Notes: generated from the sequence alone by a model not told the origin. Shown: positions 762-16,788, counted from the first letter of the stretch. The stretch is 20,000 nucleotides of DNA from an uncultured virus (IMG/VR IMGVR_UViG_3300020037_002418) (IMGVR_UViG_3300020037_002418), one strand, 5' to 3'. Program-made: numbers and translations.

Positions 762-764
762 GAT

Positions 765-1712
765 TTATGCCGGATTTGAGTCAATCGTGAGCTCAAGCTC
801 CCTCGTGGAGCCTGTCATGCGGGAGACGTAGTTGCTAACCAGGTCGATCTCTTCCTTGCCGGAGACCACGGGGCTCTGGTTCACTAACTGAAGGACCCCG
901 AACGTCCAGGCAATGCTGACATTGCCATTAGTCGCGGTGATCACGTTGTTGCTCGTAGGAGACGAGGACAGGGCCACCGCATCTAGGGCAGCCGTAGCTG
1001 AGTCGTACGGATGTCGGGTCTGGAGGCTGACCTTGCGGTGCATCGGATACAGGATCGACGGCTCCACGCTGTTCACATACCGAGGACGCACATAGTTGTC
1101 GAGCACAATCGTGAACTGCTTAGTCTCGTACGCAGTATTAGAGATCTTGATAGCAGACGCCGTGTCTTCGAACACCATCGGGTAGAAGCTGCCGTCGGCC
1201 AGGGAGATGCTGGCTGTGGGTCCCGATGGGTTCTTCTGGTAGGCCAGAGCAATGATCGAGAGCTGGAGGATCAAGAAGTTCGGGGGGCCACCGGGGCCAT
1301 TCTGCGTGCCACGGACCACTGCCTTCGTCACATAGCAGGAGCTGAACTCGAACGTCGCCGTTACCTTGTCAATCAGAATTGCGAACGGCAGGAGAGCGTT
1401 TCCGTTGGTGGCGAAGCTGTACGTAGTAGAGACGGCCGTCTTACCCATGAAGTAAGGGGCCCAGGTAGCCATCTCAGCCGGACTGACGCCGAACGTGATG
1501 GTGCCTGAGTAGACGCTCGGTCCTTTACGGGCCCGCTCACCGTGCTCTGACCGGTCCCCTGTGATGACCATTGGGTGGACGACCGAGCCGATGTACTGCA
1601 TCGACTCCCGGTAGAACGGGTACGAGATGATCGTGCCGGTTGTCCAGTTAGGGACGCCAGCCCCATCTTTCAGATACAGCCTAGCTTTGGCTCCTTGAGC
1701 TTCCGATGCCAT
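765..1712 (-). CDS. Probable tail tube / major tail protein
   Basis: About 315 aa, beta-rich and S/T-rich; follows adaptor and terminator-like genes; GGAG upstream of ATG at 1712 (preferred to the TTG start at 1724). Confidence 0.6.
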   Translation of the reverse strand: MASEAQGAKARLYLKDGAGVPNWTTGTIISYPFYRESMQYIGSVVHPMVITGDRSEHGERARKGPSVYSGTITFGVSPAEMATWAPYFMGKTAVSTTYSFATNGNALLPFAILIDKVTATFEFSSCYVTKAVVRGTQNGPGGPPNFLILQLSIIALAYQKNPSGPTASISLADGSFYPMVFEDTASAIKISNTAYETKQFTIVLDNYVRPRYVNSVEPSILYPMHRKVSLQTRHPYDSATAALDAVALSSSPTSNNVITATNGNVSIAWTFGVLQLVNQSPVVSGKEEIDLVSNYVSRMTGSTRELELTIDSNPA

Positions 1713-1728
1713 CCATGGCTCCAATCAT

Positions 1729-2202
1729 TTAATAACTCGTGGGTAGCTCGCGAACCCAGCTTACCACAACCAATTGTCGGATGATGTAATTCGGCCACTT
1801 GTTGGGGTTGGTCAGGGTCTTGCCGGGCATCACGATGCAGACGTGCTCCTTGGGAGCCGTGGCGTCTCCAATCGTCACCAGGACCCGCTGGTCAGCGAAC
1901 CGCCTCCGGATCAGCTCGTACCACTGCATGACCTTATCGTCTGACAGGATCGAGTCATAGGACCGCATCTTCGCCAGCACGATTCCCACAATGTAACCAA
2001 TGTCTGAGGTCCCTACGGTGCCGTCGTCGTACTGCTCTCCCATGTCGATAATGGAGGCCCCACGATACGGATCTCCCGTCGGAGACAGCCAGTCCTCACG
2101 GATCGCTACCTCCGAGTCCACCAGCCCTTCCGGCTGAAGGTCCTTCACGATGGCTTCGATGGCCACCATGATCTGACCTTTATGGGAGATGTAGCTAGCC
2201 AT
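1729..2202 (-). CDS. Putative tail terminator / neck completion protein
   Basis: 157 aa between adaptor and tail tube; N-terminal helix followed by beta strands; translationally coupled to the upstream gene (TAATG); call rests on size and synteny. Confidence 0.45.
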   Translation of the reverse strand: MASYISHKGQIMVAIEAIVKDLQPEGLVDSEVAIREDWLSPTGDPYRGASIIDMGEQYDDGTVGTSDIGYIVGIVLAKMRSYDSILSDDKVMQWYELIRRRFADQRVLVTIGDATAPKEHVCIVMPGKTLTNPNKWPNYIIRQLVVVSWVRELPTSY

Positions 2203-3398
2203 TAGGGCTGCGTCCCTCCGGTGGTCAGGTCCGCACTGGCGGCGATACCTGCCAGGTTGTTCGGTTGGTAGGCCCGACCACCACGGTCTTCCGAGCGTTG
2301 ATCAGCAGCCATAGCAAAGATCAGAGCCCGTTCATAACGAGCCTCTCTCTGCTCCTGGCCCTTCCGGTCTTGGGAAGCGAACTTCGCCTCACAGCACCGC
2401 AGAAAGGCACTCCGCATGGCACCCGGCTCAATGTCGATCCGAGAGCTGATACGGTAGCCCGAGCCAGATAGCGTGGTATCCGCGTCCTGCTCTAAGGTCA
2501 GAGACGTCGTAGATTCCACACTCCGAATCACCCGCTGCATGGTGTAAGGATTCACTCGGTTCTTGTCGATCTCCCCTTGGAGTGAGGTCGGGATGGACGT
2601 ATCCCCGGTCTTCGTGAACCGCATCACGGCTCCCACCATATCCGAGGTGAAGCTCGTACTGGTGCCCGTGACGGTCGCAGACCCTGAGGTCGTAGCCACC
2701 GTTCCCACCGAGTACTCCAGCACCTTCAATGGCAGGGGCCAGCAGAGGGCATGGTACTGGTAAGTGCGGGCCGAGCTAGGAGACGGGGCAAAGTGGATAG
2801 CCATAGCACCCGCATACAGGTCACTGCGGTAGGCCGCATACATCAGAGGCTGGGCCGTGTTCCGCATGATCCGCTGCTCATGGAGGATATCCGAGGGCTC
2901 CACGCATTGCAGGAGCCGCCCAGGAGCGTTGAGGTCATGCACGTACAGAACCTCCCGGATGGTATCGGGAAGCTCGTACGTGTCGCGGGTGATGGTGTAG
3001 CTGGTACCGGAGGCGATATCAGCCGTTGGGCAGTCACCATCCCTGAGAATCACGACGGTGCTAGAGGTCCGGCTTTCAATGCTGTACCGGGCACCGGCAA
3101 TGTATAGGGCGTACTTCGTCACATCCGATGGCCACGTCGAGCTAGTCAGCGTGAGCGTACGAGACGACGACGTGTAGGCAATCGTCCCCGATGTCTGGCT
3201 GGCTACCGTGGCAAACGAGAACGTGCGGTAGTAGTACCGCCAGCTTCGGCGTACCGGGATCTCCGAATACGCCTCCAAGACAGCATCCCACGCCAACCTG
3301 CGGCTCCGGGGTGAATAGTCCCCGGCCACAACTTGATCGAGGGTGTAGTCGATGGCGTCCCATACGGTTAGGTATGGGGTATTGCTAGTTAGGCTCAT
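2202..3398 (-). CDS. Head-tail adaptor-like protein with two inserted S/T-rich beta modules
   Basis: N-terminal helices (..AWDAVLEAYSEI..RSWRYY), YELPD motif, 'IHFAPSPSSARTYQY' and C-terminal helices are typical of phage adaptor proteins; AAGGAG SD. Confidence 0.6.
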   Translation of the reverse strand: MSLTSNTPYLTVWDAIDYTLDQVVAGDYSPRSRRLAWDAVLEAYSEIPVRRSWRYYYRTFSFATVASQTSGTIAYTSSSRTLTLTSSTWPSDVTKYALYIAGARYSIESRTSSTVVILRDGDCPTADIASGTSYTITRDTYELPDTIREVLYVHDLNAPGRLLQCVEPSDILHEQRIMRNTAQPLMYAAYRSDLYAGAMAIHFAPSPSSARTYQYHALCWPLPLKVLEYSVGTVATTSGSATVTGTSTSFTSDMVGAVMRFTKTGDTSIPTSLQGEIDKNRVNPYTMQRVIRSVESTTSLTLEQDADTTLSGSGYRISSRIDIEPGAMRSAFLRCCEAKFASQDRKGQEQREARYERALIFAMAADQRSEDRGGRAYQPNNLAGIAASADLTTGGTQP

Positions 3399-3428
3399 GG
3401 AGGCTCCTTCCTTAGAGCGACTCCATTA

Positions 3429-4097
3429 TTAGGTCAGGACGGGGTGACCATGCAGGCGGAAGATGAACTGGCCAGCCGTGTAAGCCGCAGCCGTGTCACC
3501 CGTGCCTGCGGTGAGGTAGAAGTAGTGATCAGCGGTAAGGCTTTGGACCAAATTCTGGACCACAACACCTGCTACCGCATCGCCATTGTTAACACCGTAA
3601 GTCGTGCCACCGGCACCGTCATAGGCCAGTGACCCCGACGAATTGACCACGATGTTCACGTCATTGTCACCACCGGTCGGGGTCTCTACGCAGATCTGCT
3701 CGATCTTGAAGATCACACCGTTCGTAGCAACCACGTTGCGACCAATGTAGGCATTGCCGCCCGCCGACAGGCCAATGACGTCATTGGCGGTAGCCACGCT
3801 CGCCAAGCCTTGGAGATCGACTTTAATCTCAGTGATGATAATACCGTTCTCGGTGTAGCGGTACGTGGCTGGGGCCACGCCCGTACCAATCGCACCGGCA
3901 CCGTGTTCGGCGGTCACCGCCACGCCAGTTCGGCCAACTACACCGGTCATGAACTTACTAGCGTTCAGGGTCACGGCTTTCGACGCCTCGGCAGTTCCGA
4001 GAGTAGCCACGTTGTAGATGTTGAGGAACTCGGTCGCGGCCCCTTGATTAGCAAGACCTTTAGCGAGGTGGCTGGTGAAATTACGAGAGAACGACAT
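3429..4097 (-). CDS. Putative virion structural protein (G/A/T/V-rich, beta-rich)
   Basis: 222 aa from ATG 4097 with AAGGA SD; composition and position in the morphogenesis operon. Confidence 0.55.
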   Translation of the reverse strand: MSFSRNFTSHLAKGLANQGAATEFLNIYNVATLGTAEASKAVTLNASKFMTGVVGRTGVAVTAEHGAGAIGTGVAPATYRYTENGIIITEIKVDLQGLASVATANDVIGLSAGGNAYIGRNVVATNGVIFKIEQICVETPTGGDNDVNIVVNSSGSLAYDGAGGTTYGVNNGDAVAGVVVQNLVQSLTADHYFYLTAGTGDTAAAYTAGQFIFRLHGHPVLT

Positions 4098-4138
4098 GGG
4101 TCGGAATCCTTTCCGGTGGTGACAGCAGCCCAAGCCGC

Positions 4139-4876
4139 TTAAACAGGCGACTTAACCTTGGCTGGCTTTGTCTTGCTGGGACCGTGCTTCGCCAAAACCA
4201 TAGCTCGTAGCTCTGACTTTGACTTAGACTTCAGCTCCGGATTGGATCGTACCATATCCACGGCCTTACGCCTAACCAGATCCGCTCCCATGGGGGTGCA
4301 GTTCTCGTCAGCTAATTCATCCCGTTCAGGCTCTCGGTGGTTGGTACTGACCGCCCCATCGCAGGCCCAGCCCCGCTTCTCACAGAGATTCTTGATATAA
4401 CTCCGGGCACCACCAAATGGCACTACCGCCTCGGGGTCCCCTACGAACCGGGCCAGCTCGGGCATGTACTCGTCATTGGGTTTCAGGTTCACCCCTCGCT
4501 TGGCGAGCTGCTGCTTGACGTTGTTGATGTAGGTGTTGTTCTTTTTGCTACTGGGGTCTCCGAAGACTTCGTGCCAGGGCTTTCTTCCGGCCCAGAAGGT
4601 GTCGGTGGTTTGGAGTCCGGGAGGGGCTTGAAGACATAACATCGTCGCCCATCTATCACCACACTTCTTATCCTCCCTGCGGATTCGCACATAGATCGCC
4701 CCTCTCGTGACGTGGCCACCGCACTCCACGACTAGCTCCCCGCAGCGTGCCAGAACATCCGAGCTGACATTGGGGAACTCCTTGAGGATCTCCTCGGGCA
4801 TTGGCGGGTACACCACCAAGTCCACATAGGGTCGCCAGTCTTCGTTGTCTTTGAGCCAGACATCTATCCGTTTCAT
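4139..4876 (-). CDS. Hypothetical protein downstream of portal
   Basis: 245-aa ORF; ATGA overlap with the portal stop; basic C-terminus. Confidence 0.75.
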   Translation of the reverse strand: MKRIDVWLKDNEDWRPYVDLVVYPPMPEEILKEFPNVSSDVLARCGELVVECGGHVTRGAIYVRIRREDKKCGDRWATMLCLQAPPGLQTTDTFWAGRKPWHEVFGDPSSKKNNTYINNVKQQLAKRGVNLKPNDEYMPELARFVGDPEAVVPFGGARSYIKNLCEKRGWACDGAVSTNHREPERDELADENCTPMGADLVRRKAVDMVRSNPELKSKSKSELRAMVLAKHGPSKTKPAKVKSPV

Positions 4877-7302
4877 GCGGCTTTTCCTGGTTTGGGTTTC
4901 GTAGCAGCCATCTTCTTAGCCGTATCTACCTTAGCCTTCGACTGCTCTTTGGTGGTGTCGATCTTAGTCTTAGCCTGGGCCTTGGCAACAGCCACCTGAG
5001 TGGCACCCTGCTCCCGCTGCATCGCCATTTGCTGCTGACCCATCTGGATCTTCTGGGCACCCTCAGCAGTCTTCACAGCCATATCCACCTGACCCTGCTC
5101 TTGCTGCATCTGGATGTTCTGCTGATGCTCCTGCTGAGCCATCTGCATTTCCATCTTCTTCTCTTGGATCTTGAGCTGCATCTCCACCATTTTCATCTGG
5201 AGTTCAGCCTCCATCTTCTTCAGCTCCATCGCCATTTCCTGCTGGCTCTGTTGCTGGTCCATCTGCATCTTCTGTTGGTCCATGGCTCCCTTCATCTGGA
5301 GCTCCTGCTGCTTTAGGGCAGCGGGATTAGCTTGGGCCTCGGATTGGAGTTTGACGGCCTCCGCTTGCACCTTCTGAAGTTCCGCCTGCTGCATCTGCGT
5401 TTGAAGCTGTGCTTCCGGGCTGTTCTCGTCCTTAGGCTGGAAGAAGAGACCATCCAAGTCCATATCATGCAGCTCCCCATACTTCTTGAGGAGACCGTTG
5501 ATCGGCTCCCAGTCACCCGTCAGCTCAGCACGCTTGCTGGCCTCGGGCAGGAATCGACCCATGAGTTCGTTGAGATCCGCAATGTCTCGGTCTCGGTTCG
5601 GACGGCGGACAGAGCTGGCGGCCACCTCATAGTGCATCTGCCGCATCACGCTCTCGGCATCGGCGTTCTCGATGTGCTCCTTCCAGAGCATGGCACCGGC
5701 CTGACCTAGGAGCGGCACAACGTCGGGAGCCTTTACAAACAGCCAGGTGAGCATGGCCTCAACACCAGCAACTCGGCTTTGCCAGCCCACAACCTTCTTT
5801 TGCATATATTCTGGGCGAGCACTAACAGCCGATTTTCTAGCTTCCGTCGTTGACGCTGTGCGGTCTTGGGTGCCGTCTTCGTTTTGGCCATAGACGAAAG
5901 GGGTCATCCCCATCCTTTTATCGAAGTTGTTACTCAGGATATCCAGAACCTGCCAGGAGTCTCGGTTGACCTCTTTGTTCTCAATGATTTGGATCATCTT
6001 CTTGACGTCATCCACCGAGCCGGGAGGCAGGGCGAATACATCCAAGTCGGCCCCGTCATCGAGGACCTTCTTGATGTCGTCATAGTACTGACCCAGGACC
6101 GCGTACATCTGGCGGCTAGACTGCCAGGTACGGTTCACCAGCCATGAGACGATGGCGTTCATGGCCTTCAGCTCACCCAAGGCGGGGGCCAAGGGGGCTA
6201 TGGGGTAGGCACTTTCCGGATCGTCGTAGAAACGAAGGACTTCAACGGGCCAGCGGTCATCGGTCCAGAGCGGGACCGGCCACTCGAAGGACTGCCGCAC
6301 TTCCTCCGACGTCGCTCCATTGCGGATCTTGTCTGCTGGGCAGTTGAGTGGGTAAGGGCAGTCTGGGCAGATCGCCAGATATGCATAGTCACCGACGGTC
6401 TCCTCTAGTTGATTCTTGATAATGCTGGGCATCCCGGTCATACGGGCCCCGGTGCCGAGCTTACTCCAGACCTCATACCACACGATCAGGTCACTGGTCT
6501 TACCGGCCTTCCGGTCGGCACCACCGTCCCCTGAGCTACTAGCCAACTCCGCATAGTGCCACGAGGACTCTAGGGTGGCCTTGTTCTTTAGGGAGCCGGG
6601 TGGCAGCTTGAACCGCCGCTCGACTTGCCAGTGGGCCTCCGTGTGGCGGAGAGCAATCCACTTGGCTTCCTGCATGGTCTTGAAATCAGGGTCGATGATC
6701 AGGTCACCAGGCGGCTTCCGGAAGCAACCAGTGAGCGTTCTCTCAGAGCCGGGCATCGAGTAGGGGGCCGGCCACATACAGCCCATGCCAGTGAGCATAG
6801 CGTCGAGAACAGCCAGTTCGTTATGACCTTCGAGTCCATTGCCAGGCATTTCCCGAGGCGTGTAATTCAGCCACCCCGTCAGGAGCTGAGCCACTACCTT
6901 GTCCTTCGATGCCTCTTGGGCTGCCATCTGCATGACAACCTGATACATCTGGGGATCTGGGAAGGCGTCCTGAGGAAGCTCTAAGATCTTCTTCGGGGTG
7001 ACTGTCCGATGCGGGACATCCCACAAGAGGTTCGGGCCAAAGACAGCCACGAACTCAAAAGCCTTGTTGATGGTGACTCGGAACCGGGGAGCCTTCACGC
7101 CCCTCCAGAACTTCTTGGAGTAGAGCGGGTCCCACATGGCGGCAGCCGACTTCGAGTAGAACATCATGCACTCGTCGGCCACCTCCTTCCACTTCTTGCG
7201 GGGCTGAGACGTCAGGGCCATCTCGATCTTAGAAAGCCAGCCCGAGCACAACGGACGTAGGAATTGGTAGTCCGTGTCTTCGATATCGCCTAGATCGAGC
7301 AT
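4873..7302 (-). CDS. Portal protein (P22-like, with long Q/M-rich C-terminal coiled coil)
   Basis: 809 aa two genes downstream of TerL; 'DLIIDPD..AKWIALRH' and 'GQ..DRTASTTEARKS' resemble podoviral-type portal motifs; Q/M/E/K-rich helical tail. Confidence 0.8.
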   Translation of the reverse strand: MLDLGDIEDTDYQFLRPLCSGWLSKIEMALTSQPRKKWKEVADECMMFYSKSAAAMWDPLYSKKFWRGVKAPRFRVTINKAFEFVAVFGPNLLWDVPHRTVTPKKILELPQDAFPDPQMYQVVMQMAAQEASKDKVVAQLLTGWLNYTPREMPGNGLEGHNELAVLDAMLTGMGCMWPAPYSMPGSERTLTGCFRKPPGDLIIDPDFKTMQEAKWIALRHTEAHWQVERRFKLPPGSLKNKATLESSWHYAELASSSGDGGADRKAGKTSDLIVWYEVWSKLGTGARMTGMPSIIKNQLEETVGDYAYLAICPDCPYPLNCPADKIRNGATSEEVRQSFEWPVPLWTDDRWPVEVLRFYDDPESAYPIAPLAPALGELKAMNAIVSWLVNRTWQSSRQMYAVLGQYYDDIKKVLDDGADLDVFALPPGSVDDVKKMIQIIENKEVNRDSWQVLDILSNNFDKRMGMTPFVYGQNEDGTQDRTASTTEARKSAVSARPEYMQKKVVGWQSRVAGVEAMLTWLFVKAPDVVPLLGQAGAMLWKEHIENADAESVMRQMHYEVAASSVRRPNRDRDIADLNELMGRFLPEASKRAELTGDWEPINGLLKKYGELHDMDLDGLFFQPKDENSPEAQLQTQMQQAELQKVQAEAVKLQSEAQANPAALKQQELQMKGAMDQQKMQMDQQQSQQEMAMELKKMEAELQMKMVEMQLKIQEKKMEMQMAQQEHQQNIQMQQEQGQVDMAVKTAEGAQKIQMGQQQMAMQREQGATQVAVAKAQAKTKIDTTKEQSKAKVDTAKKMAATKPKPGKAA

Positions 7303-7331
7303 CCTTGCTCACCCCCTAAAAGAAGTACATT

Positions 7332-7347
7332 CGGCCTGCGTAGGCCG
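7332..7347. repeat. Intergenic palindrome CGGCCT-GCGT-AGGCCG (copy 1)
   Basis: Perfect 6-bp inverted repeat; near-identical copy at 16737-16752. Confidence 0.8.
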
Positions 7348-7354
7348 TTTTGAC

Positions 7355-7819
7355 CTAGACTTCAACAGTGGCCTTCTTCTTGGCCTTGCCTAGTTTCTCC
7401 TCGATGAGGATGGCTCGCTCTTCCGCCTTCTTAGCAAAGGCCTTAGCGGCATCCTTCGCCTTCTGTTCGGCTTCGATCAGGGCGTTCTCCCGTTTAGCCA
7501 ACTCCGCTTCATGCACTTCATAGGCATCAGCCGGGGCCTCACGGGGAAAGCTCCACGAACCGCTGTTCTTGGTGGTCTCGTTGGGCTTGTCGTGAATCCA
7601 GTGGGTAGTGTGGTGACAGCCCGCCTTGTGCTGGAGCATCCCATTGAACGGGTAGACAGTGACCTTAATGCGGCCAGGTCCTTCTACCTCCGATACGATA
7701 GCGGGAGCGGCGTTCCGCTTGTCCCCATAGGCGTGGTAGATAACGCCATCACTGACTTTCGGGGTCGGCTGGAGCCTCTGTCGCTGTTCCGCTAACTGGT
7801 TCCACACTTCGCTGCTCAT
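7355..7819 (-). CDS. Hypothetical protein (small beta domain plus K/A/E-rich helix)
   Basis: 154 aa from ATG 7819 with AAGGA SD; 'APAIVSEVEGPGRIKVTVYP' beta motif; ends in TAG. Confidence 0.7.
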   Translation of the reverse strand: MSSEVWNQLAEQRQRLQPTPKVSDGVIYHAYGDKRNAAPAIVSEVEGPGRIKVTVYPFNGMLQHKAGCHHTTHWIHDKPNETTKNSGSWSFPREAPADAYEVHEAELAKRENALIEAEQKAKDAAKAFAKKAEERAILIEEKLGKAKKKATVEV

Positions 7820-7912
7820 CGGATTCCTTTCCTGAAACCTCGTATCCTTCACTCATGGCGTAAATGATGAAGGGTGTTAAAAACTGAAAGTCTTCTTCTA
7901 GCCAGATTGCAC

Positions 7913-9679
7913 TCATACTGACTGTCCCGGCCCCATGTTCACGTAACCGTCGGTCTCTTTCTCTAGCTCAGCCTTAAGCTGCTTGGCAGCGTGGTAGGCC
8001 AGGCTCCCCGTACTGCGATAGCTATCCGGTGGAATATAAGCTATCCCGTCACGGAACCGACCATAAATATACTCGCTCAGGTACTCAACAGCCATTACGC
8101 AGTCGTACAGCCGCTCAGCCTGACCGTCATCCGTGGGCACCGGATTCCCTTCCGGGTCCTTCACCACTGCCTTCCGGAAGGCCCGGATCTCTTTCATGGT
8201 GGACGGGCAGCGGTAGGAGAACATCAGCCGGGGCCAGCCATTCTCGGTTGGCTCCATGAGATCCCGAACCGTTCTCCGTCGCAGGGCCTTATCGTTACAG
8301 CCCCGCATGAACCCACTATTCGTGGTTCTGCTAATGAGCCCCCTAGTCCTAAACTCTCGCTCGTAGGCTGCGAAGACGGTGACGTCCGAGGCTACGGTAG
8401 TCTGCCGGCCGATCATCTGATCCATGATGAAGGCTTCGAAGCGGAACCCACCTACCCGATCCTTGACGGCATCAGCCAGCATGGCGGGGGTGTACTTCCG
8501 GACGATGATCTCTTCTTCAATGATCAGGCGGTTCCCTAGGTCGAGCTCCTCGGGAGGCGGCACCACCCCAATCAGGCAGGCTGTCCGGGTATGGCTGGGG
8601 TCGATGACTAGGTACCGGGTCCAGTGCGGGGGGAACCGGGTCGGGTCATTGGTCAGCATGTTGCAGAGCGTCTGGTGCGGATTCTCTGGCTTCTCGACTT
8701 GCTTAGGCCGGACCTCGTGGATCGCTGCCCCGAAGTTGTACATCTGCCGGCCGCTGATGAACGAACTGATATCGCCCTGGTTACGGTGGGCCTCGTCATC
8801 GTCATCGTCCATACGGGCCAGCATCTGCTGGATACCCTTACGGTCGGAGTAGGGATTGTCGGAGCCAATGAGCCGGAAGACTTCGATAGGCTTCTCGGGG
8901 TTGTCCTTCTCCCGCTCCGCCCGGTCGAGCGTCTTGATCAGGGCCTCGTTCGCTACCTGGGGCCACACGGACCACAGGAACCAGCCGCACGTTGTCGCGA
9001 GACGGTCCTGCCATTCCTTTAAGAACGAGCTCTTCTCAATGTCTTCGTCTATCCAGATCCCGTCTACCGCATCACCCTTCTTCGGGGCGTCGCCGGTACT
9101 CGGATAGGCACAAATCGTCACCCCATTCTTGAGACGGACTGACCGGAAGACGTGGCCCGCCGCACTCTCCATGTGCCAGGAGCCGGGCTCGATCATGTGC
9201 TCCCCAAAGAGAGGCGGTGATAGCTCACTGTCGTTGTATCGCTCCCGGTCATAGTTCGGGTTATAGGCCCGCCACTTGTGAGTCTGGAGGTCCTGGATGA
9301 TCCGGAAGTTGGCACCGTCCCCGAGGCCAGGAGAGAATAGGCGGTGATAGAGGGTTTGGCCAATGTGATTGACGTCATACCCAATCACCCAATACAGACC
9401 AGGGTTGCGTTTAGATGGGGCACGGAAGCGGAGCGGGATCTTAGTTCCGTCTTGACGGGTAATAGGGATGCCAAGAATGCGGCTTCCCAGCTCTAAAACC
9501 ACACTCAACGTTTTTCCTGACCGCTTCCCACCAATTGTGAGGACTTCAGACGCCGGAGATTCGTGTACGGGGAGCTGGAACTCAGTAGGACGGTAGACCT
9601 CCAGTGGATGCTTCTCGTACTGTTCCAGGGCATGGATGCCCTTTTGGATATCAGCGAGTTGGTGCTTAAGGTTGGCCAT
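7913..9679 (-). CDS. terL: Terminase large subunit
   Basis: Q motif (TEFQ), Walker A GGKRSGKT, Walker B IWIDE, RNase H-like nuclease YLVIDPS...IMD...D; 588 aa. Confidence 0.92.
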   Translation of the reverse strand: MANLKHQLADIQKGIHALEQYEKHPLEVYRPTEFQLPVHESPASEVLTIGGKRSGKTLSVVLELGSRILGIPITRQDGTKIPLRFRAPSKRNPGLYWVIGYDVNHIGQTLYHRLFSPGLGDGANFRIIQDLQTHKWRAYNPNYDRERYNDSELSPPLFGEHMIEPGSWHMESAAGHVFRSVRLKNGVTICAYPSTGDAPKKGDAVDGIWIDEDIEKSSFLKEWQDRLATTCGWFLWSVWPQVANEALIKTLDRAEREKDNPEKPIEVFRLIGSDNPYSDRKGIQQMLARMDDDDDEAHRNQGDISSFISGRQMYNFGAAIHEVRPKQVEKPENPHQTLCNMLTNDPTRFPPHWTRYLVIDPSHTRTACLIGVVPPPEELDLGNRLIIEEEIIVRKYTPAMLADAVKDRVGGFRFEAFIMDQMIGRQTTVASDVTVFAAYEREFRTRGLISRTTNSGFMRGCNDKALRRRTVRDLMEPTENGWPRLMFSYRCPSTMKEIRAFRKAVVKDPEGNPVPTDDGQAERLYDCVMAVEYLSEYIYGRFRDGIAYIPPDSYRSTGSLAYHAAKQLKAELEKETDGYVNMGPGQSV

Positions 9680-10221
9680 TACTCTAAGTTCTGGGCCGAG
9701 CCCGTGATGGTGCGGATAGCTTCCTTCTTGGCGTCTGGTGTTTCCATCTTCGCCATGATGGCTGCCATCTTCAGGGTGAGTCGGGCCTCGATCTCCGCCT
9801 TCGTGAGGTTGTTCCAGTCCTGCTCCACCTGAGTGCTCTCCACCTTAGCGTGGATACTCATGAGCTTAGCCACGAATGAGAGGGCCTGGGACTTCTTGCC
9901 GGTAGCGGCGAGGTCCTTCACCCACTGAGAGAGATCCTTGCAGAGCGGCTCCACTCCCCCGTACTCGTCGTAGAACCCATCCACGATCTGAGCCAACGGC
10001 TCTAGCGTCTTGCCGTTGCCGTACTTAGCAATGACTTGGGCTACCTTCTGGCCAGCCATCGCCACCTTCTGGTCGTAGATGGCCATCGACGCTTCGAGGG
10101 GCAGGCACTTATTGCACCGCAGGTCTAACGGCAGGCTGTTGTAGCAACTAGCCGGGAGCCAGGTCTTGCACTGCGGACAAAAGAGCTGCTTCTCTTCTGG
10201 GTTTACTTGGGAATCGCCCAT
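9679..10221 (-). CDS. Probable terminase small subunit with N-terminal CxxC..CxxC zinc finger
   Basis: Helical 180-aa ORF coupled to terL (TAATG); CPQC and CNKC motifs. Confidence 0.55.
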   Translation of the reverse strand: MGDSQVNPEEKQLFCPQCKTWLPASCYNSLPLDLRCNKCLPLEASMAIYDQKVAMAGQKVAQVIAKYGNGKTLEPLAQIVDGFYDEYGGVEPLCKDLSQWVKDLAATGKKSQALSFVAKLMSIHAKVESTQVEQDWNNLTKAEIEARLTLKMAAIMAKMETPDAKKEAIRTITGSAQNLE

Positions 10222-11873
10222 ACATCTCCAGATGCTCTGAGTTTGTAACCGTTGTTCTCAGCGAACTCATCGACCATCCGACGGAGCTTAGGAGTCTCAT
10301 ACCCCAGTCCCGCCAGCAAGCCGCCTTCCGTGATGTGCTTGAACCAGGTCTCCAGCTTCTCTTCCGTCAGAGACCGCTCGATAAACACCAAGTCCAGGTG
10401 ATGCTGGTCTTCAGGATAAGGGAACTTTCTGCCAGACAGGTCGGCCATTACCCGTCCTGATTCTAGCTCGTGCTGAAAGCTCTTCGCAAACTGCTCGGCC
10501 GGCTCGGTGCTGAACTGGTAGGTCAGCGTAGAGTCGAGGGCGTACAGGTGCGATCCTTCCGGGAGTCCTTCCAGGATGGCGGCAGCCGATTGACCGGAGC
10601 CGGCGTGAGCTACGGCCACTTCAATGGGCCCATCGTTCTTCTCAACCAGCCAGTTCGTGAGGGCGGCGATGTTGTCGATGGACTCGTTGCTGATTTCGGT
10701 AGGGATAGCAGCTACCTTATAGCCACCGACAATACGGTGCTTGAGGGCGTGGCCGTTCTGCTTCTCTAGGGCGATAGCCACTGAGTTCTCAACACCAGCC
10801 ATCTCGGCGTGGGTATTCACCAAGGGCGGAGTGCCATTAGTCACTATCGGCTCGTTGTCGAGCTTGACGTCGGCATACTGACTGCCGGTTTCCTTTTCTC
10901 GTTCCATGAGGACGCGAGCTTCTTCCAGATCTTCCGGGGAGAGATAGACCTCATTCTGATCGTGACGCAGGGTCTGGCCCCGCCGACCGATATGGTCAGG
11001 TAGATTGCTGGTGTAGTCCACAATTCGCTTCTCGTCTTGGATTGACGTGTTGCAGTTCAGGGCCTCTCGCATCTCTTCGGCCACAATCTCCAGAGTAGCC
11101 ACCCGGGGCTTACCAACCCGCTTTGGCTTGTTGTGCAGAGCCCAGGAGTTGCAAGCAGCGAAGCAGACGTCGTAACCCTTCTTGATCTTCCAGTACACGC
11201 TCAGGTTGCGGGTGGCGAAGCAGTCTTCTGTTCCCCGCTTCTCACACTTGTCCTTGTCGTGCTCGTAGTCGAAGAACGGCTTAGGGGGGCCATCGAAGAT
11301 GTTCGTGGTGAATAGGCAGCAACCCGTAGGCAGCGACGACATCGGGTGAATGCCAGCCAGCTTCTCAGCCTCACGGCGAGTCAGCATCTCTTGCTTCCAG
11401 CCCGAGTCCAGGCCGTTCGTCTCTACGTTGGTCCACTGGAAGAGATACGGCACCTCACCACCATCACTGATGCCAGGACGGTTGATCGGGTGCGGGGGAG
11501 GACCGCAGTAGGGAGCCGCAATGACAGTCGGGATGCCCTGCTTCAGCCGGTCAAAGGCGAAGGTGAAGGCCTCGTCCAAGAACAGCTTGGCAGAGGGGTC
11601 CTTGCCGTAGTAGGCATCTGGCTCGTTGTCCGAGTCCAGCATCAGCAGCATATCGCAGCCGGCTTCCTTGGCCTCACGTACGGCCAGATTCCTGGTCATA
11701 TACACCGGGGTATCCGAGTAGATTCCCACTACCACCGTCTCGACCCGTGGGTCATTGAGCAGTCGGTTGTAGGCCTTACCCCACCAGACCATGAGTTCAG
11801 GGATGACCGAAGACACTCCGCCGTTACCACCGTACGCATAGATGGCAACTGCGATCCGTACCGTGCTTTTCAT
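10203..11873 (-). CDS. GT-A (GT2-like) glycosyltransferase fused to a degenerate class I SAM methyltransferase-like domain
   Basis: N-terminal 'RIAVAIYAY..TRNLAVREA..CDMLLMLDSD' (DxD) plus 'PTGCCLF' and 'TEDCF'; C-terminal 'GSGQSAAAIL..LYALDS..LDLVFIE..GGLLAG' resembles the Methyltransf_24 layout. Confidence 0.7.
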   Translation of the reverse strand: MKSTVRIAVAIYAYGGNGGVSSVIPELMVWWGKAYNRLLNDPRVETVVVGIYSDTPVYMTRNLAVREAKEAGCDMLLMLDSDNEPDAYYGKDPSAKLFLDEAFTFAFDRLKQGIPTVIAAPYCGPPPHPINRPGISDGGEVPYLFQWTNVETNGLDSGWKQEMLTRREAEKLAGIHPMSSLPTGCCLFTTNIFDGPPKPFFDYEHDKDKCEKRGTEDCFATRNLSVYWKIKKGYDVCFAACNSWALHNKPKRVGKPRVATLEIVAEEMREALNCNTSIQDEKRIVDYTSNLPDHIGRRGQTLRHDQNEVYLSPEDLEEARVLMEREKETGSQYADVKLDNEPIVTNGTPPLVNTHAEMAGVENSVAIALEKQNGHALKHRIVGGYKVAAIPTEISNESIDNIAALTNWLVEKNDGPIEVAVAHAGSGQSAAAILEGLPEGSHLYALDSTLTYQFSTEPAEQFAKSFQHELESGRVMADLSGRKFPYPEDQHHLDLVFIERSLTEEKLETWFKHITEGGLLAGLGYETPKLRRMVDEFAENNGYKLRASGDVWAIPK

Positions 11874-11882
11874 TGTTTCCTC

Positions 11883-11922
11883 AAAATAAAAGCCCCCTCG
11901 GTGTACGGAGCACCGAGGGGGC
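11883..11922 (-). terminator. Rho-independent terminator after the capsid/decoration genes
   Basis: 12-bp perfect GC-rich stem GCCCCCTCGGTG/CACCGAGGGGGC with a 7-nt loop, followed on the minus strand by TTTTATTTT. Confidence 0.85.
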
Positions 11923-12023
11923 CGAACCCCAGATGGTTTCCCATCTCACCCGCTGCTCAGGAGAAAACAGCGGGTTTCTTGCTCTGGTTGCGTCTCCGTA
12001 AAACGCTCCCAGTTATTAGCTGA

Positions 12024-12650
12024 TTACCAAGGAAGGTCGAGGTAGACGAGTACGTTCGCTGCCGTGGTGGCAGTCGTGCTCATCGCCACGCCCAGCCGGT
12101 TCAAAGCCGCACTCATGCAGTAGGTCGCATTGCTCGTCGAGATGATCGACGTGATGCGGCCCGCCGTGGTGGCTTGGCTCGTGGCCGCCGTAATGGCGAT
12201 CACATAGTCATCCTTCACCAAGGCATTAGCATCGAGCGACTTCTTCACCAAGCACGGACCCTTCACGACCAACCAGAAGTAGTCGTTAGTGGCCACGCCC
12301 GTGGACGGCAGGAACTCATCGACGATGCCAGCAACTACGCCGGAATCGAGCGACACGTAGCCATCCACTTCTTTACCTTCCATATTCGTCTTCCACACGC
12401 ACGCCCGGCCCGGAAGCAGGGAGATTGCACTGGAGTTGCGAACCAGGATGCACTCGACGTTGCCACCCGAGCGGGGGCCGAGGACAGTCGTGTTGCCAGT
12501 CAGGGTGCTGGAATAATCCAGATCCTTGAAGGCCTTGCGAATGCCACGGATCGCCGTGCTGGTCGTCGAGCTCGTGTCTGCCGTCCGGTTAGGGCCGGTC
12601 AGGTAAGTCTTCCCACGTTGGGGAAGGGAAACAACATTGTCAGCGGCCAT
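12024..12650 (-). CDS. Putative capsid decoration / cement protein
   Basis: 208 aa, A/T/S/V-rich; 'VAGIVDEFLP..NDYFWLVVKGP'; first non-mobile gene after MCP and last before the terminator; GAGGA SD. Confidence 0.55.
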   Translation of the reverse strand: MAADNVVSLPQRGKTYLTGPNRTADTSSTTSTAIRGIRKAFKDLDYSSTLTGNTTVLGPRSGGNVECILVRNSSAISLLPGRACVWKTNMEGKEVDGYVSLDSGVVAGIVDEFLPSTGVATNDYFWLVVKGPCLVKKSLDANALVKDDYVIAITAATSQATTAGRITSIISTSNATYCMSAALNRLGVAMSTTATTAANVLVYLDLPW

Positions 12651-12700
12651 ATTTAAGTTCCTCGCCCGGCAGTGGGTTTTTGCCCTTTACCGGCTCTGAG

Positions 12701-13300
12701 TCAAAGTCCTGATTGAATGGGGTTCTTAACCAACGGGCCGTTTAATATCCGTGAGGCCCACACCATCATTTCTTCATCGGACATCACACTCTTCATCCAA
12801 TTAGCTGCCTTACAAACCAGCCGCACATTGGACTCCGTGTAACCAATCGCATTGTCTATGCGGTCGATTGTCACGTTCGTGTAAACGCCCTTCCCTTGGC
12901 CTTGGATGTGTGTCATCGGAATCCCGGTTATTGCACACTTACCGTCCTGCTCTCTCCACCTACGCATGAGCAGCTCGTGTGTCACCTCTGATTCCGCAGC
13001 CATCAACCTCCGCCTCACGGTGTTTCTTCGCTGGCCAGACGTGGCTTTATGGGCCCGCCAAAGACATCGAAGATAAGCATCCGTGTTTTCAGTTTTGTAA
13101 GTTCTGGTTCTCTTCGTGTTGCATGAGTTGCATCTAGTTTCTCTGCCATTTGCTGTGTGCCTGGCTGGATAAAAGTTCTCCAGTGGGACCCACAGATGAC
13201 AGCTAGAGCACTCTTGCTTTCCGTCGATCACCAGCTTCTTTGGCCTACCGGCTTTTTTGCCGTTAGGCACATACGATAATTCACTACTGCTTGTACCCAT
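12701..13300 (-). CDS. Free-standing HNH homing endonuclease with N-terminal zinc finger
   Basis: CSSC..CNSC finger; 'QDGKCAITG..TIDRIDNAIGYTESNVRLVCKAANWMK' HNH core; AGGAGG SD before ATG 13300; visibly more AT-rich than its neighbours. Confidence 0.85.
   Translation of the reverse strand: MGTSSSELSYVPNGKKAGRPKKLVIDGKQECSSCHLWVPLENFYPARHTANGRETRCNSCNTKRTRTYKTENTDAYLRCLWRAHKATSGQRRNTVRRRLMAAESEVTHELLMRRWREQDGKCAITGIPMTHIQGQGKGVYTNVTIDRIDNAIGYTESNVRLVCKAANWMKSVMSDEEMMVWASRILNGPLVKNPIQSGL
12781..12894. repeat. Inverted repeat arm 1 (HNH catalytic region)
   Basis: Reverse complement of 19887-20000 with 113/114 identity. Confidence 0.95.
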
Positions 13301-13322
13301 AAAACCTCCTGAGGTTGCGACA

Positions 13323-13351
13323 AGTGTATTCCACAAGTCGTTAGCCAGCAA
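13323..13351 (-). promoter_or_regulatory. Candidate sigma70-type promoter for the HNH gene
   Basis: TTGCTG-17 nt-TACACT on the minus strand, 22 nt upstream of the HNH ATG. Confidence 0.45.
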
Positions 13352-13363
13352 GAGGATATCGTG

Positions 13364-14476
13364 TCAAGCATAATTTTTGAGTTTGGCCAAAAACTTAGGA
13401 CTTAAACTGCACTGGCCGTAGAATCCCGAGGCCCACAGAGCGGCAAAGCCAGCCCGAGGATCTTCGGTGGGTCCACGCATCCAGAACAGTTCCGGCATCC
13501 AGGAGGCGATCTCCACGGTGCTGGTGTTGACCATGTAGCCGGTGTTGGCCGGGCAATCGAAGTCCGCACTGATCGTGCAACCGTCTTGGTTCAACACGTT
13601 GCCGGCGAAGCCCAGGTCATTGGCCGTCTTGGCGGGAACCGAGATTCGGCGGATGGCCTCTTCGTGGTTCTTGTAGGCCTGGAACAGGTTGGGAGCCAGG
13701 GAGCAGATCTCGGGCATTCCATCGTCGCCACCTTGGATGGTGAGCCAGGTGATGGTCTGACCGATCACACGCCAGCAGTTGTCCTCGAACGTGGTGGAGC
13801 CGGTGCCCCAGCCCGTGCTGGACCAGTTCACCAGTTTCGGTGAGAAGTAATCGTATTCCACATCGCCCTGTCCATCCGGCCAGTCGTTGGCCAGCGTGGC
13901 ATTGGGGGAAGTCGTGAGGTTGGCACTCCACGTTCCGCCTTGATTGGCGAGAGCCGTCGAGAGACCCGCATAGGTCGTGCTCGGTTCAGCGATGCGGTCA
14001 CCAGCAGCAGGAGCCGTTCGCTCCGTGAGGCAGGTTTCCAAACCATAGATGGCGTTCTCACGGCCAGCGGTGCCACCCGCCTTGTACACTTCCGAAGCCA
14101 GACCGTTCTGGAGCTTCTTCATGATGCGGCCTTGCTTGGTCTTGAACAGATTGATGAGGGCTTCCTCACCGCTATTCATCGCCTTCTGCTTCATGGTGAT
14201 CGAGTCCGAGACTTGATAACCCGAAACAGGGAGCACCGCCTGTTGGAAGGCTTGGTGGTTCGAGAAGTCGATCATCGAGCCATCGCCGTGCTGGTGCATG
14301 GTGGGCTGCGAGAATTCGATCTGCCAGCGGAATTCATAGCCGCTGTTGTTGTAGGTGATCCGGCCCTTCTTCTTGAGCATCGCCAAGAAGAGACGACGGC
14401 GGATCGTCATATCCGAAGCACCCTTCATGTAGGCGGGCTTCGTGGTATTGATTACGCCAATCCATTCGTCAGACAT
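13364..14476 (-). CDS. Major capsid protein (HK97 fold, podoviral-type family)
   Basis: 370 aa after the scaffold-like gene; 'LFLAMLKKKGRI..SGYEFRWQIEF', 'NSGEEALINLFKTK' and 'IYGLET' resemble podoviral-type MCPs; AAGGA SD; strong G/C third-position bias. Confidence 0.8.
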   Translation of the reverse strand: MSDEWIGVINTTKPAYMKGASDMTIRRRLFLAMLKKKGRITYNNSGYEFRWQIEFSQPTMHQHGDGSMIDFSNHQAFQQAVLPVSGYQVSDSITMKQKAMNSGEEALINLFKTKQGRIMKKLQNGLASEVYKAGGTAGRENAIYGLETCLTERTAPAAGDRIAEPSTTYAGLSTALANQGGTWSANLTTSPNATLANDWPDGQGDVEYDYFSPKLVNWSSTGWGTGSTTFEDNCWRVIGQTITWLTIQGGDDGMPEICSLAPNLFQAYKNHEEAIRRISVPAKTANDLGFAGNVLNQDGCTISADFDCPANTGYMVNTSTVEIASWMPELFWMRGPTEDPRAGFAALWASGFYGQCSLSPKFLAKLKNYA

Positions 14477-14580
14477 CTTTAGCTTCCTTGCTAAAAGCCA
14501 GTCACAGGGCAGGCCGCCAGGTCAGCAAATCTCTGACGCTAGAAGGGCGTGATGCCTATTCACTGGGTGTATCCATACAC

Positions 14581-15714
14581 CTACGCTGCCGCACCGGTCT
14601 TATGCTTGCGGAAAGCGTTGGTAAACATGTTCTCTAACTCGCCCTCATTGCTGGGGACGAAGCCACTCCCGTCGTCGGTGTAGCTGCCTTGATTGGCTGA
14701 GGGGCTGGCCTTCCGCCGCATCTCATCAATGAAGGACTCTTGTTTTGATTTGGGGGCCGCAGAGGGAGGGGCGTCCGTGCCCTTGATGAACTTTCCATGC
14801 TCATCCCTCGCACGACCTGCATCGGTTGGCGTAACAACCGGTGTTGGACTGGTAGGCTGCGTGTTCACGCCTGATAACTTCAAGGCGTAAGCCGCTAGCT
14901 TCTGGGGGTCGTTTATACCCTGTTGGCGGAGTTCCGCAACAGTCTGCCGAAACTTCTCGCCGTCAGCCGTCAGTCGGCCATCGGGTTGATAGAGCCAAGC
15001 TTTGTGCTCGTCCGAGAACTTCTACTCGAAGGACTGGGCCTGGGTCTGTTGTTCGTAGGATTGGAACTGACTCTGGATCTTCTCTTCCAGCATTCGCTGG
15101 AACTGCCGCTCCAAGACGGGGCTGATGCCCTTGTAGATGTTCTGGTAGAAGTTCCCTTCGAACAGCTTCTGCATCTGTTCGCGTTGGGCAACGTGGGCCT
15201 GGTTCAGATCGTTGAGAACCGGCAGGGCCATGGCTTCGAAGCCGGGCTTGGCCTGATAGAGGCCGTTGTCACCCAGTTCTACAATGCCCTGATTGATCAG
15301 GAACTTCGCTTGTTCGTTAATCTGTGGTGCTTGCCACAAGGAGTTGAAATGGGAGTCGGGATCGAATTCGTCACTGGCCTCCTCGCTGGCTACATCATCG
15401 GAGCTACGATTGCCACGATTGGCACCGCCATCCTTTGTGCCACTTACAAGCGATGAGCGGCCAAGGTCAGCGTAGGCCCGGTCTTGCATGTACCGGTCGA
15501 GGAGGGCTTCCGCAAAGGAGCTCTCGTCCTCGATCCCATCGAGTGGGAGTCCGGCTGCTTGGGCTCGGGCATACAGCCCGCTACCAGAGAATGAGGAGTG
15601 TTGCTCGGGAGCAGCTTGTTCTGGGGCTGCTTCAGGTGTGGCCTCAGCCACGGGAGATTCCGGTTCCGCTTCCGGAGTAGGGACGCCACCAAAGATGTCT
15701 TCGAGCTCAGGCAT
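14581..15714 (-). CDS. Capsid scaffolding-like protein with an in-frame TAG at 15022-15024 (230 aa to the stop, 377 aa if read through)
   Basis: Acidic P/E/A-rich N-terminus, Q-rich helices and 'RARDEHGKF' motif; immediately upstream of MCP; the frame stays open past the TAG into the 14581-14883 ORF. Confidence 0.7.
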
Positions 15715-15750
15715 AGGATTCCGTTCCTGGAGATATAGGGGGTTGAGCTA

Positions 15751-15779
15751 TTAGTACCACTGATACAGAGACCTGTCAA
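15751..15779 (-). promoter_or_regulatory. Candidate promoter of the morphogenesis operon
   Basis: TTGACA-17 nt-TACTAA with an extended -10 TG, in the divergent intergenic region. Confidence 0.45.
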
Positions 15780-15798
15780 ACTACACAAGGAGTGATGA

Positions 15799-16026
15799 AT
15801 GAAGAAAGATGAGATCACGGCGTTCTGCTACAACCCGAACAACGGGGTCGCCAACGACACGCAGTACACCTTCAAGTCATCGGACGTCAGGGGCATTACA
15901 ATGGCTCCCGATGGAACGACCTACGCCAACCTGCGTGGGTTCCGTCAGGCCCGCATCCGGGTCAACGACTACTTCAACCTCAAGGAAGAGAAGTTCCCAT
16001 GGACCAAGGCACCCAGTCCAAAGTAA
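15799..16026 (+). CDS. Hypothetical protein
   Basis: 75 aa; AAGGAG SD; first gene of the plus-strand cluster. Confidence 0.7.
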   Translation: MKKDEITAFCYNPNNGVANDTQYTFKSSDVRGITMAPDGTTYANLRGFRQARIRVNDYFNLKEEKFPWTKAPSPK

Positions 16027-16343: not shown

Positions 16344-16353
16344 GGAGATAGCC

Positions 16354-16753: not shown

Positions 16754-16788
16754 ATTCCCCTCAAATGGGTGGGTGATAGGAGCACTTA

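Follow-up and report, generated by a model that had tools for sequence, protein, structure and literature searches.

The window examined here is a stretch of 20,000 nucleotides (nt) from an uncultured virus (IMG/VR IMGVR_UViG_3300020037_002418). It belongs to an uncultured phage of ~70 kb, designated G000, whose host is likewise uncultured. Positions 1-19848 of the window equal G000:C1:8454-28301 in an IMG/VR virus record of 28,301 bases that is rated ~40% complete. The last 152 bases (19849-20000) are not in this record, which has no terminal repeat. The virion genes run along the minus strand of the window, referred to below as the late strand. This analysis concerns a set of hairpins in the late-strand mRNA that display the motif ANGGAN in a six-base loop, together with a gene of the CsrA family on the same contig whose product may read them.

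The genes had been given names in a preliminary description of the window, which fared unequally. The capsid label was confirmed for a gene of 370 amino acids (aa) at 13364-14476 on the minus strand, which matched phrog_9953, a major head protein (E 5.7e-22). The portal label was weakly supported for an 809-aa gene (4873-7302, minus strand; phrog_332, E 4.5e-7; PF23899 SU10_portal below the cut-off) and is kept as portal-like. In contrast, no family match supported the labels scaffold, adaptor and tail tube, and the corresponding genes are named here by their lengths of 230, 398 and 315 aa. The 398-aa gene (ATG 3398, minus strand) showed a weak tail-fibre match (phrog_1591, E 1.4e-4). Apart from the genes named in this text, most open reading frames (ORFs) of the window were without family.

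All eight ANGGAN-hexaloop hairpins listed in the preliminary description were recovered on the minus strand. The minus strand of the full contig carries twelve, the four further ones being at the starts of a 446-aa and a 566-aa gene and inside a 100-aa and a 588-aa gene. The first, agga[ACGGAA]tcct (15715-15728; loops in brackets), abuts the ATG (15714) of the 230-aa gene. Around the capsid start, gggc[ACGGAC]gccc (14769-14782), ~300 nt 5' of the capsid ATG, falls within the coding sequence of the conserved 100-aa gene (14581-14883); ggtgt[ATGGAT]acacc (14566-14581) occupies the capsid leader directly 3' of the stop of the 100-aa gene; and tttagc[AAGGAA]gctaaa (14478-14495) holds the capsid Shine-Dalgarno sequence (SD; ATG 14476) and is present in the local minimum-energy fold. 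The hairpin ccgga[AGGGAA]tccgg (8140-8155) is inside the 588-aa gene. Ribosome-binding sites (RBSs) are occupied by gga[AAGGAA]tcc (7821-7832; 154-aa gene, ATG 7819) and cgga[AAGGAT]tccg (4102-4115; 222-aa gene, ATG 4097). At the RBS of the 398-aa gene, two registers overlap within 3401-3418: the one described earlier, gctct[AAGGAA]ggagc at 3403-3418, is present but needs a closing U-G wobble, whereas the all-Watson-Crick register agg[AAGGAG]cct sits at 3401-3412. Outside the window, ggcc[ATGGAG]ggcc (G000:C1:3049-3062) and gtgt[AAGGAA]acac (G000:C1:7804-7817) cover the RBSs of the 566-aa gene, which diverges from csrA, and of the 446-aa gene.

At two genes the loop encloses the start codon itself. 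The hairpin gagc[AAGGAT]gctc (7297-7310) surrounds ATG 7302 of the portal-like gene, with an SD-like GGGGG run upstream, and gcc[ATGGAT]ggc (1708-1719) surrounds the ATG of the 315-aa gene, with a GGAG SD upstream. At both genes the SD therefore lies outside the loop, which contains the ATG, and the loop GGA is not the SD, as had been proposed. The ATG named for the 315-aa gene (1716) was out of frame, but the in-frame ATG (1712) lies in the same loop. The stems had further been described as mostly different in sequence, which is only partly true: GGA...TCC is common to 4 of the 12 contig-wide stems.

Enrichment and covariation of the late-strand hairpins

The enrichment of the hairpins was upheld against several controls, including ones that preserve the SD. 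On the late strand of the G000 contig, 12 of 153 ANGGAN motifs were flanked by a perfect stem of at least 3 bp and 9 by one of at least 4 bp, counts reached by none of 300 dinucleotide-preserving shuffles (means 2.48 and 0.65, respectively). The plus strand was ordinary, with 103 motifs, 3 and 1 stems, and observed counts reached by 89 and 108 of 300 shuffles. It had been cautioned that GGA is common near starts anyway; this caveat was answered by conditioning the test on the motif: the left flank of each site was joined to the right flank of another, so that every SD stayed intact. In a list of 35 genes compiled by hand, 20 ANGGAN motifs were start-proximal, that is, began at -25 to 0 of the start codon; 10 of them reached the 3-bp stem threshold and 6 the 4-bp threshold, whereas re-pairing gave means of 1.19 and 0.49 and reached the observed counts in 0 of 20,000 trials. 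An annotation-free rule was also applied, requiring that a start codon follow the first loop base by 4-17 nt, open at least 80 codons and have an in-frame stop at most 60 nt upstream. Under this rule, hairpins were found in 9 of 11 start-proximal ANGGAN motifs of the G000 late strand versus 3 of 142 elsewhere (Fisher P 1e-10).

The position of the hairpins followed the organization of the genes. Nine of the twelve lie at most 25 nt from a start and overlap the SD or start codon, and most loops hold the SD at the normal spacing of 5-9 nt. The hand-compiled list includes 23 late-strand genes. Twelve of these open the array or are separated from the preceding gene by 16 nt or more, and 9 of the twelve bear a hairpin; the other 11 overlap their predecessor or directly adjoin it, and none bears one. 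This indicates that hairpins mark the leading cistron of every translationally coupled block. Local folding placed the hairpin within the minimum-energy structure at 7 of 9 starts, and the stabilities of the isolated hairpins ranged from -0.6 to -6.3 kcal/mol.

Relatives of the phage were identified through the capsid protein. The search of IMG/VR returned just six relatives even with wider alignments, and five IMG/VR contigs were 76-83% identical. A search of metagenome contigs added L025 (91%) and four short or distant contigs, among the more distant ones L044 (60%). A capsid search of the genome collection gave no prophage or host match, and blastn of the capsid region against GenBank phages gave no match either. 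One relative, G008, represents the same lineage as G000 (99.9% identity over 17.7 kb). Synteny of G000 was complete with G001 (77 kb), G005 (70.6 kb, with terminal repeats) and G002 (32.5 kb) at protein identities of 33-83%; the complete relatives are G001 and G005, with protein identities to G000 of 33-81%.

The same enrichment was observed in both complete relatives. The late strand of G001 had 25 stems of at least 3 bp among 331 ANGGAN motifs and 15 of at least 4 bp (shuffle means 5.7 and 1.6), with 6 of 344 on the other strand at the 3-bp threshold; that of G005 had 18 of 261 and 12 (means 4.6 and 1.3), with 8 of 275 on the other strand. None of 300 shuffles reached the late-strand counts in either genome. 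Under the annotation-free rule, start-proximal hairpins numbered 9 of 23 on the late strand of G001 and 8 of 22 on that of G005, and on the opposite strands 0 of 8 in G000, 1 of 17 in G005, 0 of 30 in G001 and 0 of 23 in G008. Genes of the early strand in these genomes have plain AGGAG and no hairpins.

A comparison across the three genomes took in every loop size between 3 and 10 and every GGA offset. The top class on every late strand was the 6-nt loop with GGA at positions 3-5 (11, 16 and 22 hairpins of at least 4 bp), and the second class was a tetraloop alias of the same hexaloop with A...U closing. Among 63 distinct hairpins, the loop was closed by 5'C-G3' in 33, by G-C in 8 and by A-T in 16, compared with 123 of 285 for C-G and 89 of 285 for G-C in the background. 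The C-G closing pair (CANGGANG) is thus a bias and not a rule.

Stem covariation in homologous phages, which had been proposed as a check, was found at the capsid RBS, at other orthologues and inside the 100-aa gene. The capsid RBS stem, tttagc/gctaaa in G000, is replaced by cttttc[AAGGAT]gaaaag in G001 and G005 and by aagg[AAGGAG]cctt in L044. In a loop-centred alignment of just six rows, including the hairpin-less G002, five of six pairs changed on both sides, with a covariation score of 0.70 versus 0.245 for shuffled alignments (0 of 500 reached it); the score dropped when the partner was slid. Five further orthologues also vary in their stems. Those of the 230-aa gene are agga/tcct in G000, ttcgc[AGGGAA]gcgaa in G001 and gga[ACGGAA]tcc in L025. 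In the 315-aa gene, gcc/ggc of G000 corresponds to gagc[AAGGAT]gctc of G001, which stands ahead of its ATG. The 398-aa gene has agg/cct in G000 and cagcc[ATGGAG]ggctg in G001, the 222-aa gene has cgga/tccg and gga[AAGGAT]tcc, respectively, and the 154-aa gene has gga/tcc in G000, gga[AAGGAT]tcc in G001 and gga/ttc in G005, where pairing is kept solely through a G-U pair. The hairpin of the portal-like gene is identical in G000 and G005, whose proteins are 64% identical. Turnover was also observed, as the 208-aa gene carries a hairpin in G001 and G005 and none in G000, and the 513-aa gene carries one solely in G005.

The hairpin inside the 100-aa gene occupies the same codons in four lineages. 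Where G000 encodes Gly-Thr-Asp-Ala (gggc...gccc), L025 encodes Ala-Thr-Asp-Gly (ggcc[ACGGAC]ggcc), a swap that keeps the pairing and changes the peptide, and both G001 and G005 have gccggc[AGGGAC]gccggc; the hairpin is absent in G002. Taken together, the capsid RBS, the five further orthologues and this coding-region swap indicate, as far as such comparisons go, that the structure of the hairpin and not its sequence is under selection. We regard it as very probable that the hairpins constitute a real, selected RNA motif specific to strand and start.

The phage csrA gene and its surroundings

No csrA gene lies in the window, and the preliminary description had pointed to the rest of the genome. 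A csrA gene is indeed present on the same contig, 5 kb to the left of the window: it encodes 68 aa on the plus strand (G000:C1:3202-3408, equivalent to window -5251 to -5045) and matches PF02599 with 56.6 bits against a cut-off of 27 (E 7.6e-17). Residues critical for CsrA and RsmE are L2, L4, R6 and R/K7 of the N-terminal strand and the C-terminal R44-E46 region. The best solved relative of the phage protein is RsmE (2jpp, E 3.5e-9), with an alignment that spans residues 1-61 and starts at Met1. The phage protein retains M-L-x-L-x-R-K-V at its N-terminus and R-E-E in its last strand, and has Glu in place of His43. Among five phage CsrAs, L4, S5, R6, K7, R45 and E47 are invariant, the last two forming the R-x-E of the C-terminal strand. 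A two-copy structure prediction of the phage CsrA with a 5-row alignment scored 0.38 against a mark of 0.42. A tblastn search of GenBank phages with the G000 protein gave no match at 1e-3; the G005 protein matched five records as well as phrog_9500, annotated as a 'CsrA-like regulator'.

The csrA gene lies antisense between late-strand genes and diverges from the 566-aa gene. Its 3' end overlaps a 147-aa Cys-rich ORF in antisense, and its own RBS falls inside a 4-bp hexaloop hairpin, aagt[CAGGAG]actt. In both G000 and G001, the csrA RBS is within a 6-nt loop. The Cys-rich gene (G000:C1:3280-3723, minus strand) has orthologues at L024:13503-13862, L013:1787-2245 and L014:1695-2036; the small protein shares '...W-W-E-x-G-C-W-V...N-[ST]-L-G-A-R' and is conserved at the csrA slot in four lineages.

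Matches to PF02599 were obtained in G000, in the near-identical G008 and G009, and in G001 and G005 (69.3 bits). In the latter two, csrA again lies antisense in this slot, with the Cys-rich gene as its neighbour, and the CsrAs of the three lineages are 42-47% identical. Hairpins are present on this side of csrA in both: in G005, a 535-aa gene at the same position beside csrA, without tblastn match to the 566-aa protein, has gtgg[AAGGAA]ccac, and the first minus-strand start with a hairpin below the csrA of G001, that of a 347-aa ORF, has cagca[ATGGAA]tgctg. The fragments G002, G003 and G004 gave no PF02599 match; reckoned from contig ranges, the csrA slot lies beyond the contig end in G003 and G004, leaving G002 alone informative.

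The csrA slot and the hairpins are jointly absent in G002. Its tail proteins are 75-78% identical to those of G000, compared with 35-60% for G001 and G005, and its capsid protein is 83% identical. The virion strand of G002 has only 2 stems of at least 3 bp among 171 ANGGAN motifs and none of at least 4 bp. At all eight orthologous starts that bear a hairpin in G000, G002 has none, with or without G-U pairs, and has a plain SD instead; these include the 230-aa, 154-aa, portal-like, 398-aa, 315-aa and 446-aa genes, the last two 78% identical. In the slot itself, the stop of a 119-aa Cys-rich gene abuts the start of the next, large gene, which leaves no room for csrA, and PF02599 found no candidate in the 32.5 kb of G002. 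Sequence comparison suggests that G002 is a natural knockout, in which one loss on its branch would explain both traits on the four-taxon grouping suggested by the tail-protein identities.

Searches for partners of the Csr system were negative. A GGA-rich sponge RNA, as had been suggested, was not found among known families: a search of the window and the first 8.6 kb of the contig gave 0 matches to Rfam at E up to 1. FliW (PF02623) was found in none of five records (G000, G001, G002, G005 and G008) at E up to 1. A scan for sigma-70-like promoters gave none near csrA and fewer matches in the window than in shuffles.

A repeated element, AAAACGGCCT-N4-AGGCCGAAT, in which the two halves form a 6-bp inverted repeat, stands upstream of csrA (G000:C1:3133-3155), of a Mom-like gene (window ~16736-16753) and of the portal-like gene (window ~7325-7345). 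The copies at csrA and the Mom-like gene continue with a common 'ttcccc...gggtgg' and form terminator-like hairpins when read on the opposite strand. This element may be a shared operator, a promoter element or a bidirectional terminator. Its core is absent in G002, and no comparable copies were found in G001 or G005.

The capsid leader has features of its own. Between 14496 and 14560 on the minus strand, two blocks, 'aggcatcacgcc' and 'ggcggcctgccct', are kept in G001, G005/G004 and L025 but are not shared by G002/G003, and may represent a late promoter or some additional RNA element. Among the matches listed from public sequencing runs, 20 of 24 rows contained part of the stretch, all as contigs, from wastewater, freshwater and other samples. 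Alignment of four of these revealed relatives. Some run contigs that match the capsid gene switch exactly at the start codon to a G002-type leader (window 14476-14581), and in others the 103-nt capsid leader is replaced by ~100 other letters. The capsid start therefore appears to be a recombination boundary between hairpin-bearing and hairpin-free leaders.

Further features of the window include a gene of the HNH/endonuclease VII type (12701-13351, minus strand; phrog_1035, E 1.2e-26) between the capsid and 208-aa genes. It has no tblastn counterpart in G001, G005 or G002, looks like a lineage-specific homing-type insertion by this comparison, and has a TTG without SD as its sole start candidate. 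A terminator-like hairpin with 13 pairs, 10 of them G-C, followed by a T run (11891-11923, minus strand) separates the 208-aa and 556-aa genes, and the plain SD of the 556-aa gene comes directly after it; G001 and G005 likewise have T-rich hairpin tails at this junction. On the opposite strand, a module at 16789-18810 (plus strand) encodes a Mom-like protein (phrog_1384, E 1.4e-22), a serine-recombinase-like protein (PF00239, 25.3 bits) and a FkbM-type methyltransferase (PF05050). These genes have plain AGGAG-type SDs and no hairpins.

Candidate readers of the hairpins

The enrichment, the covariation, the csrA gene on the contig and the hairpin-free G002 lend indirect support to the reading put forward in the preliminary description, a late-gene regulon controlled by a CsrA-family protein. 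The hairpins are probably CsrA-family operators. The best single reading, which we favor with a little less assurance, is that the reader is the 68-aa CsrA encoded by the phage itself, acting as a translational repressor. Each operator would present A-N-G-G-A-N in a six-base loop, on a short stem free to vary in sequence, and would cover the SD or start codon of the first gene in a translationally coupled late (virion) block. With a CsrA dimer bound, the 30S subunit would be denied access to this first gene and, by coupling, to those that follow. The csrA gene, antisense in the late array, would be made while late transcription is low, and CsrA might be overcome when site-rich late mRNAs accumulate and late transcription runs antisense through csrA. 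A target mRNA can itself titrate CsrA, and ~18 nt is the optimal spacing of GGA sites for bridging by one CsrA dimer (PMC4894983). On the late strand, GGA occurs about once per 47 nt (602 in 28453), so a second GGA near each hairpin is expected by chance.

A further elaboration is possible, if tentative: a private Csr circuit would serve as a morphogenesis gate, in which the captured antisense CsrA clamps the first cistrons and switch-like release comes from operator excess together with antisense silencing. The csrA gene and the operators would then form one co-evolving unit, so that loss of csrA, as in G002, would lead to operator decay at the eight starts.

Several observations weigh against control by the phage CsrA. 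Its binding to the hairpins is a prediction from sequence, and no sigma-70-like promoter was found near csrA. Several stems have just 3 bp and fold in isolation at -0.6 to -2.2 kcal/mol, and the weaker hairpins would need a protein to hold them. The hairpin at 14566-14581 is not conserved in the leaders of G001, G005 and L025; it is the weakest member of the set for this reason, and its candidacy as a conserved second site at the capsid gene was rejected. The hairpin at 8140-8155 has no ANGGAN counterpart in the orthologous gene range of G001 or G005, which makes its membership in the set doubtful. The joint absence of csrA and hairpins rests on one lineage (G002, with G003) and is not proof. 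Moreover, G002 is 46% complete, so a csrA gene may lie elsewhere in it, and the capsid tree is an unresolved three-way fork of G005, G002/G003 and (G001,(G000,L025)). Loss in G002, as opposed to late gain in the others, is therefore argued from the tail-gene identities, the capsid tree leaving the ingroup unresolved.

Other csrA-carrying phages also weigh against it. ANGGAN hairpins numbered 3 of 130 and 0 of 106 in Bacillus phage Dartukuta, 8 of 324 and 3 of 137 in G006, and 4 of 156 and 1 of 102 (none at a start) in Burkholderia phage Bcep22, all without clear enrichment; and 14 of 442 (6.9 expected) and 7 of 183 in G007, about twofold at most. In a survey of 81 csrA-bearing IMG/VR loci (162 strand tests), the three strongest were those of the G000 clade (L008, L009 and L087), and just two unrelated loci fell below P 1e-3. 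A phage csrA alone thus does not predict such hairpins, and their generality among csrA-carrying phages was rejected. The CsrAs of Dartukuta and Bcep22 may read other sites or host RNAs, since no ANGGAN-hexaloop enrichment accompanies them. In Dartukuta (MW749009.1), two CsrA-like genes are annotated (10703-10876 and 25862-26056), one of them inside the tail module; in Bcep22 (AY349011.3), the CsrA-like gene (31170-31364) directly precedes the capsid gene.

The strongest alternative, which we consider unlikely, is that the CsrA of the host reads the hairpins and the phage csrA serves other ends, such as reprogramming host mRNAs or defence genes; in a variant, abundant late mRNAs would act as a sponge that drains host CsrA. 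The motif suits any protein of the CsrA family, and a host CsrA probably exists and could be ligand or co-ligand, because the nearest cellular relatives of the clade CsrA are mostly planctomycete (45 of 80 rows Planctomycetota by record title, at 40-60% identity), which suggests that CsrA occurs in the likely host phylum. Host manipulation has been proposed for phage RsmA (Campa et al. 2021, PMC8450108), and the flagellin leader of Campylobacter is described as both binding and titrating CsrA (PMC4894983). The csrA-carrying phages without such hairpins fit this alternative as well. Under host control, however, G002 would not be expected to lack both the hairpins and the csrA slot when its virion proteins are 75-83% identical, unless it changed host too (GC content 54.8% versus 57%). 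Nor would this alternative anticipate that the antisense place of csrA in the late array is kept in three lineages whose CsrAs have diverged to the identities given above. Phage and host CsrA cannot be told apart with certainty as the ligand.

Somewhat less likely still is a role of the hairpins without any protein, as RBS structures in which a loop-displayed SD or a 5' stem tunes the initiation rate or mRNA stability, csrA being coincidental. The normal SD spacing in most loops is compatible with this, as are the 6-nt loop at the RBS of csrA itself and the lack of hairpins in Dartukuta and Bcep22. A start-associated GGG...CCC motif around AGGAG is, moreover, described in Cluster K mycobacteriophages with no known protein partner (PMC3203893). 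However, display of an SD would require neither the fixed six-base loop, nor GGA at positions 3-5, nor the C-G closing bias, and it does not account for the two genes with the ATG in the loop and a separate SD upstream or for the covarying hairpin conserved in a coding region ~300 nt from any start. Early-strand genes with plain AGGAG are almost free of hairpins, and G002 makes the same proteins from plain SDs. Finally, another phage RNA-binding protein or an RNA as binder, or inter-cistron RNase processing sites, is very improbable: most clade proteins are without family (58 of 70 G005 ORFs have no PHROG match at E 1e-5) and the hairpins are placed between translational blocks, yet no feature indicates another reader, the motif equals the best-described CsrA site, and the presence or absence of hairpins tracks csrA.

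Relation to known systems

Repression by CsrA at GGA-loop hairpins over the SD is also known from E. coli glgC. The phage hairpins resemble the targets of CsrA/RsmA/RsmE repression, such as hcnA bound by RsmE (PDB 2jpp), in the hexaloop with GGA at positions 3-5, the overlap with SD or start and the presence of a PF02599 protein, and they lean towards C-G closing without holding to it; a high-affinity CsrA/RsmE target is described as a 'CANGGANG-containing apical hexaloop' (PMC4894983). Unlike in that system, one virus carries both the regulator and the putative operators, the predicted targets are its own virion genes (about 9 of the 23 on the late strand), and no antagonist RNA was found.

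Flagellin mRNA is under CsrA control in Bacillus (hag), with FliW as the antagonist. The phage shares with CsrA-flagellin control, as described for Campylobacter flaA (PMC4894983), an MLxLSRK-type N-terminus and ANGGA hexaloops that fall at the RBS of a structural protein made in large amounts. It differs in the absence of FliW from the five phage records searched and in having many candidate targets, not one main target.

Phage csrA genes have been catalogued since 2020: csrA was reported in 30 of 2517 phages, some of whose hosts lack csrA, and its function was left open in the available text of that report (Sobrero and Valverde 2020, PMC7366521). Host manipulation or an anti-CRISPR role was proposed for phage RsmA (PMC8450108), and in the accessible parts of further reports the role is open or guessed as manipulation of host or CRISPR (PMC10269572, CSP3 orf23; PMC12038007). 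The phage described here resembles other phages and plasmids with csrA/rsmA (Bcep22 gp54, CSP3 orf23, phrog_9500) in carrying a member of the family, and the Bcep22 and CSP3 copies also stand beside a capsid gene (CSP3: PMC10269572). It differs in that the available accounts of those cases describe no cis-regulon on phage genes, and Bcep22 and Dartukuta lack hairpin enrichment. A full-text literature search, whose coverage excluded most subscription journals, found no CsrA-type operators on a phage's own late genes.

The start-associated sequence of Cluster K mycobacteriophages (PMC3203893) is similar in having an SD-like core with symmetric outer bases, 3-7 bp before the starts of a subset of genes and in one orientation. 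In contrast to that single fixed 13-bp sequence at non-structural genes, the elements described here have varying and covarying stems, a hexaloop, virion targets and an encoded candidate reader.

The likely targets of a phage CsrA, namely the phage's own capsid, portal and tail genes, can in this case be read from the genome, and the open question becomes a short list of RNA-protein pairs, a 68-aa protein with RNAs of 14-20 nt. The value of this is tempered by a phage and host that are both uncultured and by support that is computational. If the favored reading is true, a bacterial global regulator has been captured and rewired as a virus-private translational timer or stoichiometry control, G002 serves as a natural knockout, and annotators have reason to be wary of calling a phage csrA simply 'moron' or 'auxiliary'.

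Among the phage proteins that repress translation through an RNA operator at the RBS are T4 RegA and the MS2 coat protein, which acts at the replicase hairpin. As in those systems, a phage protein is proposed here to shut off the translation of phage genes at the initiation site. The protein family and the operator are different, however, and it is a bacterial global regulator that appears to have been captured for the job.

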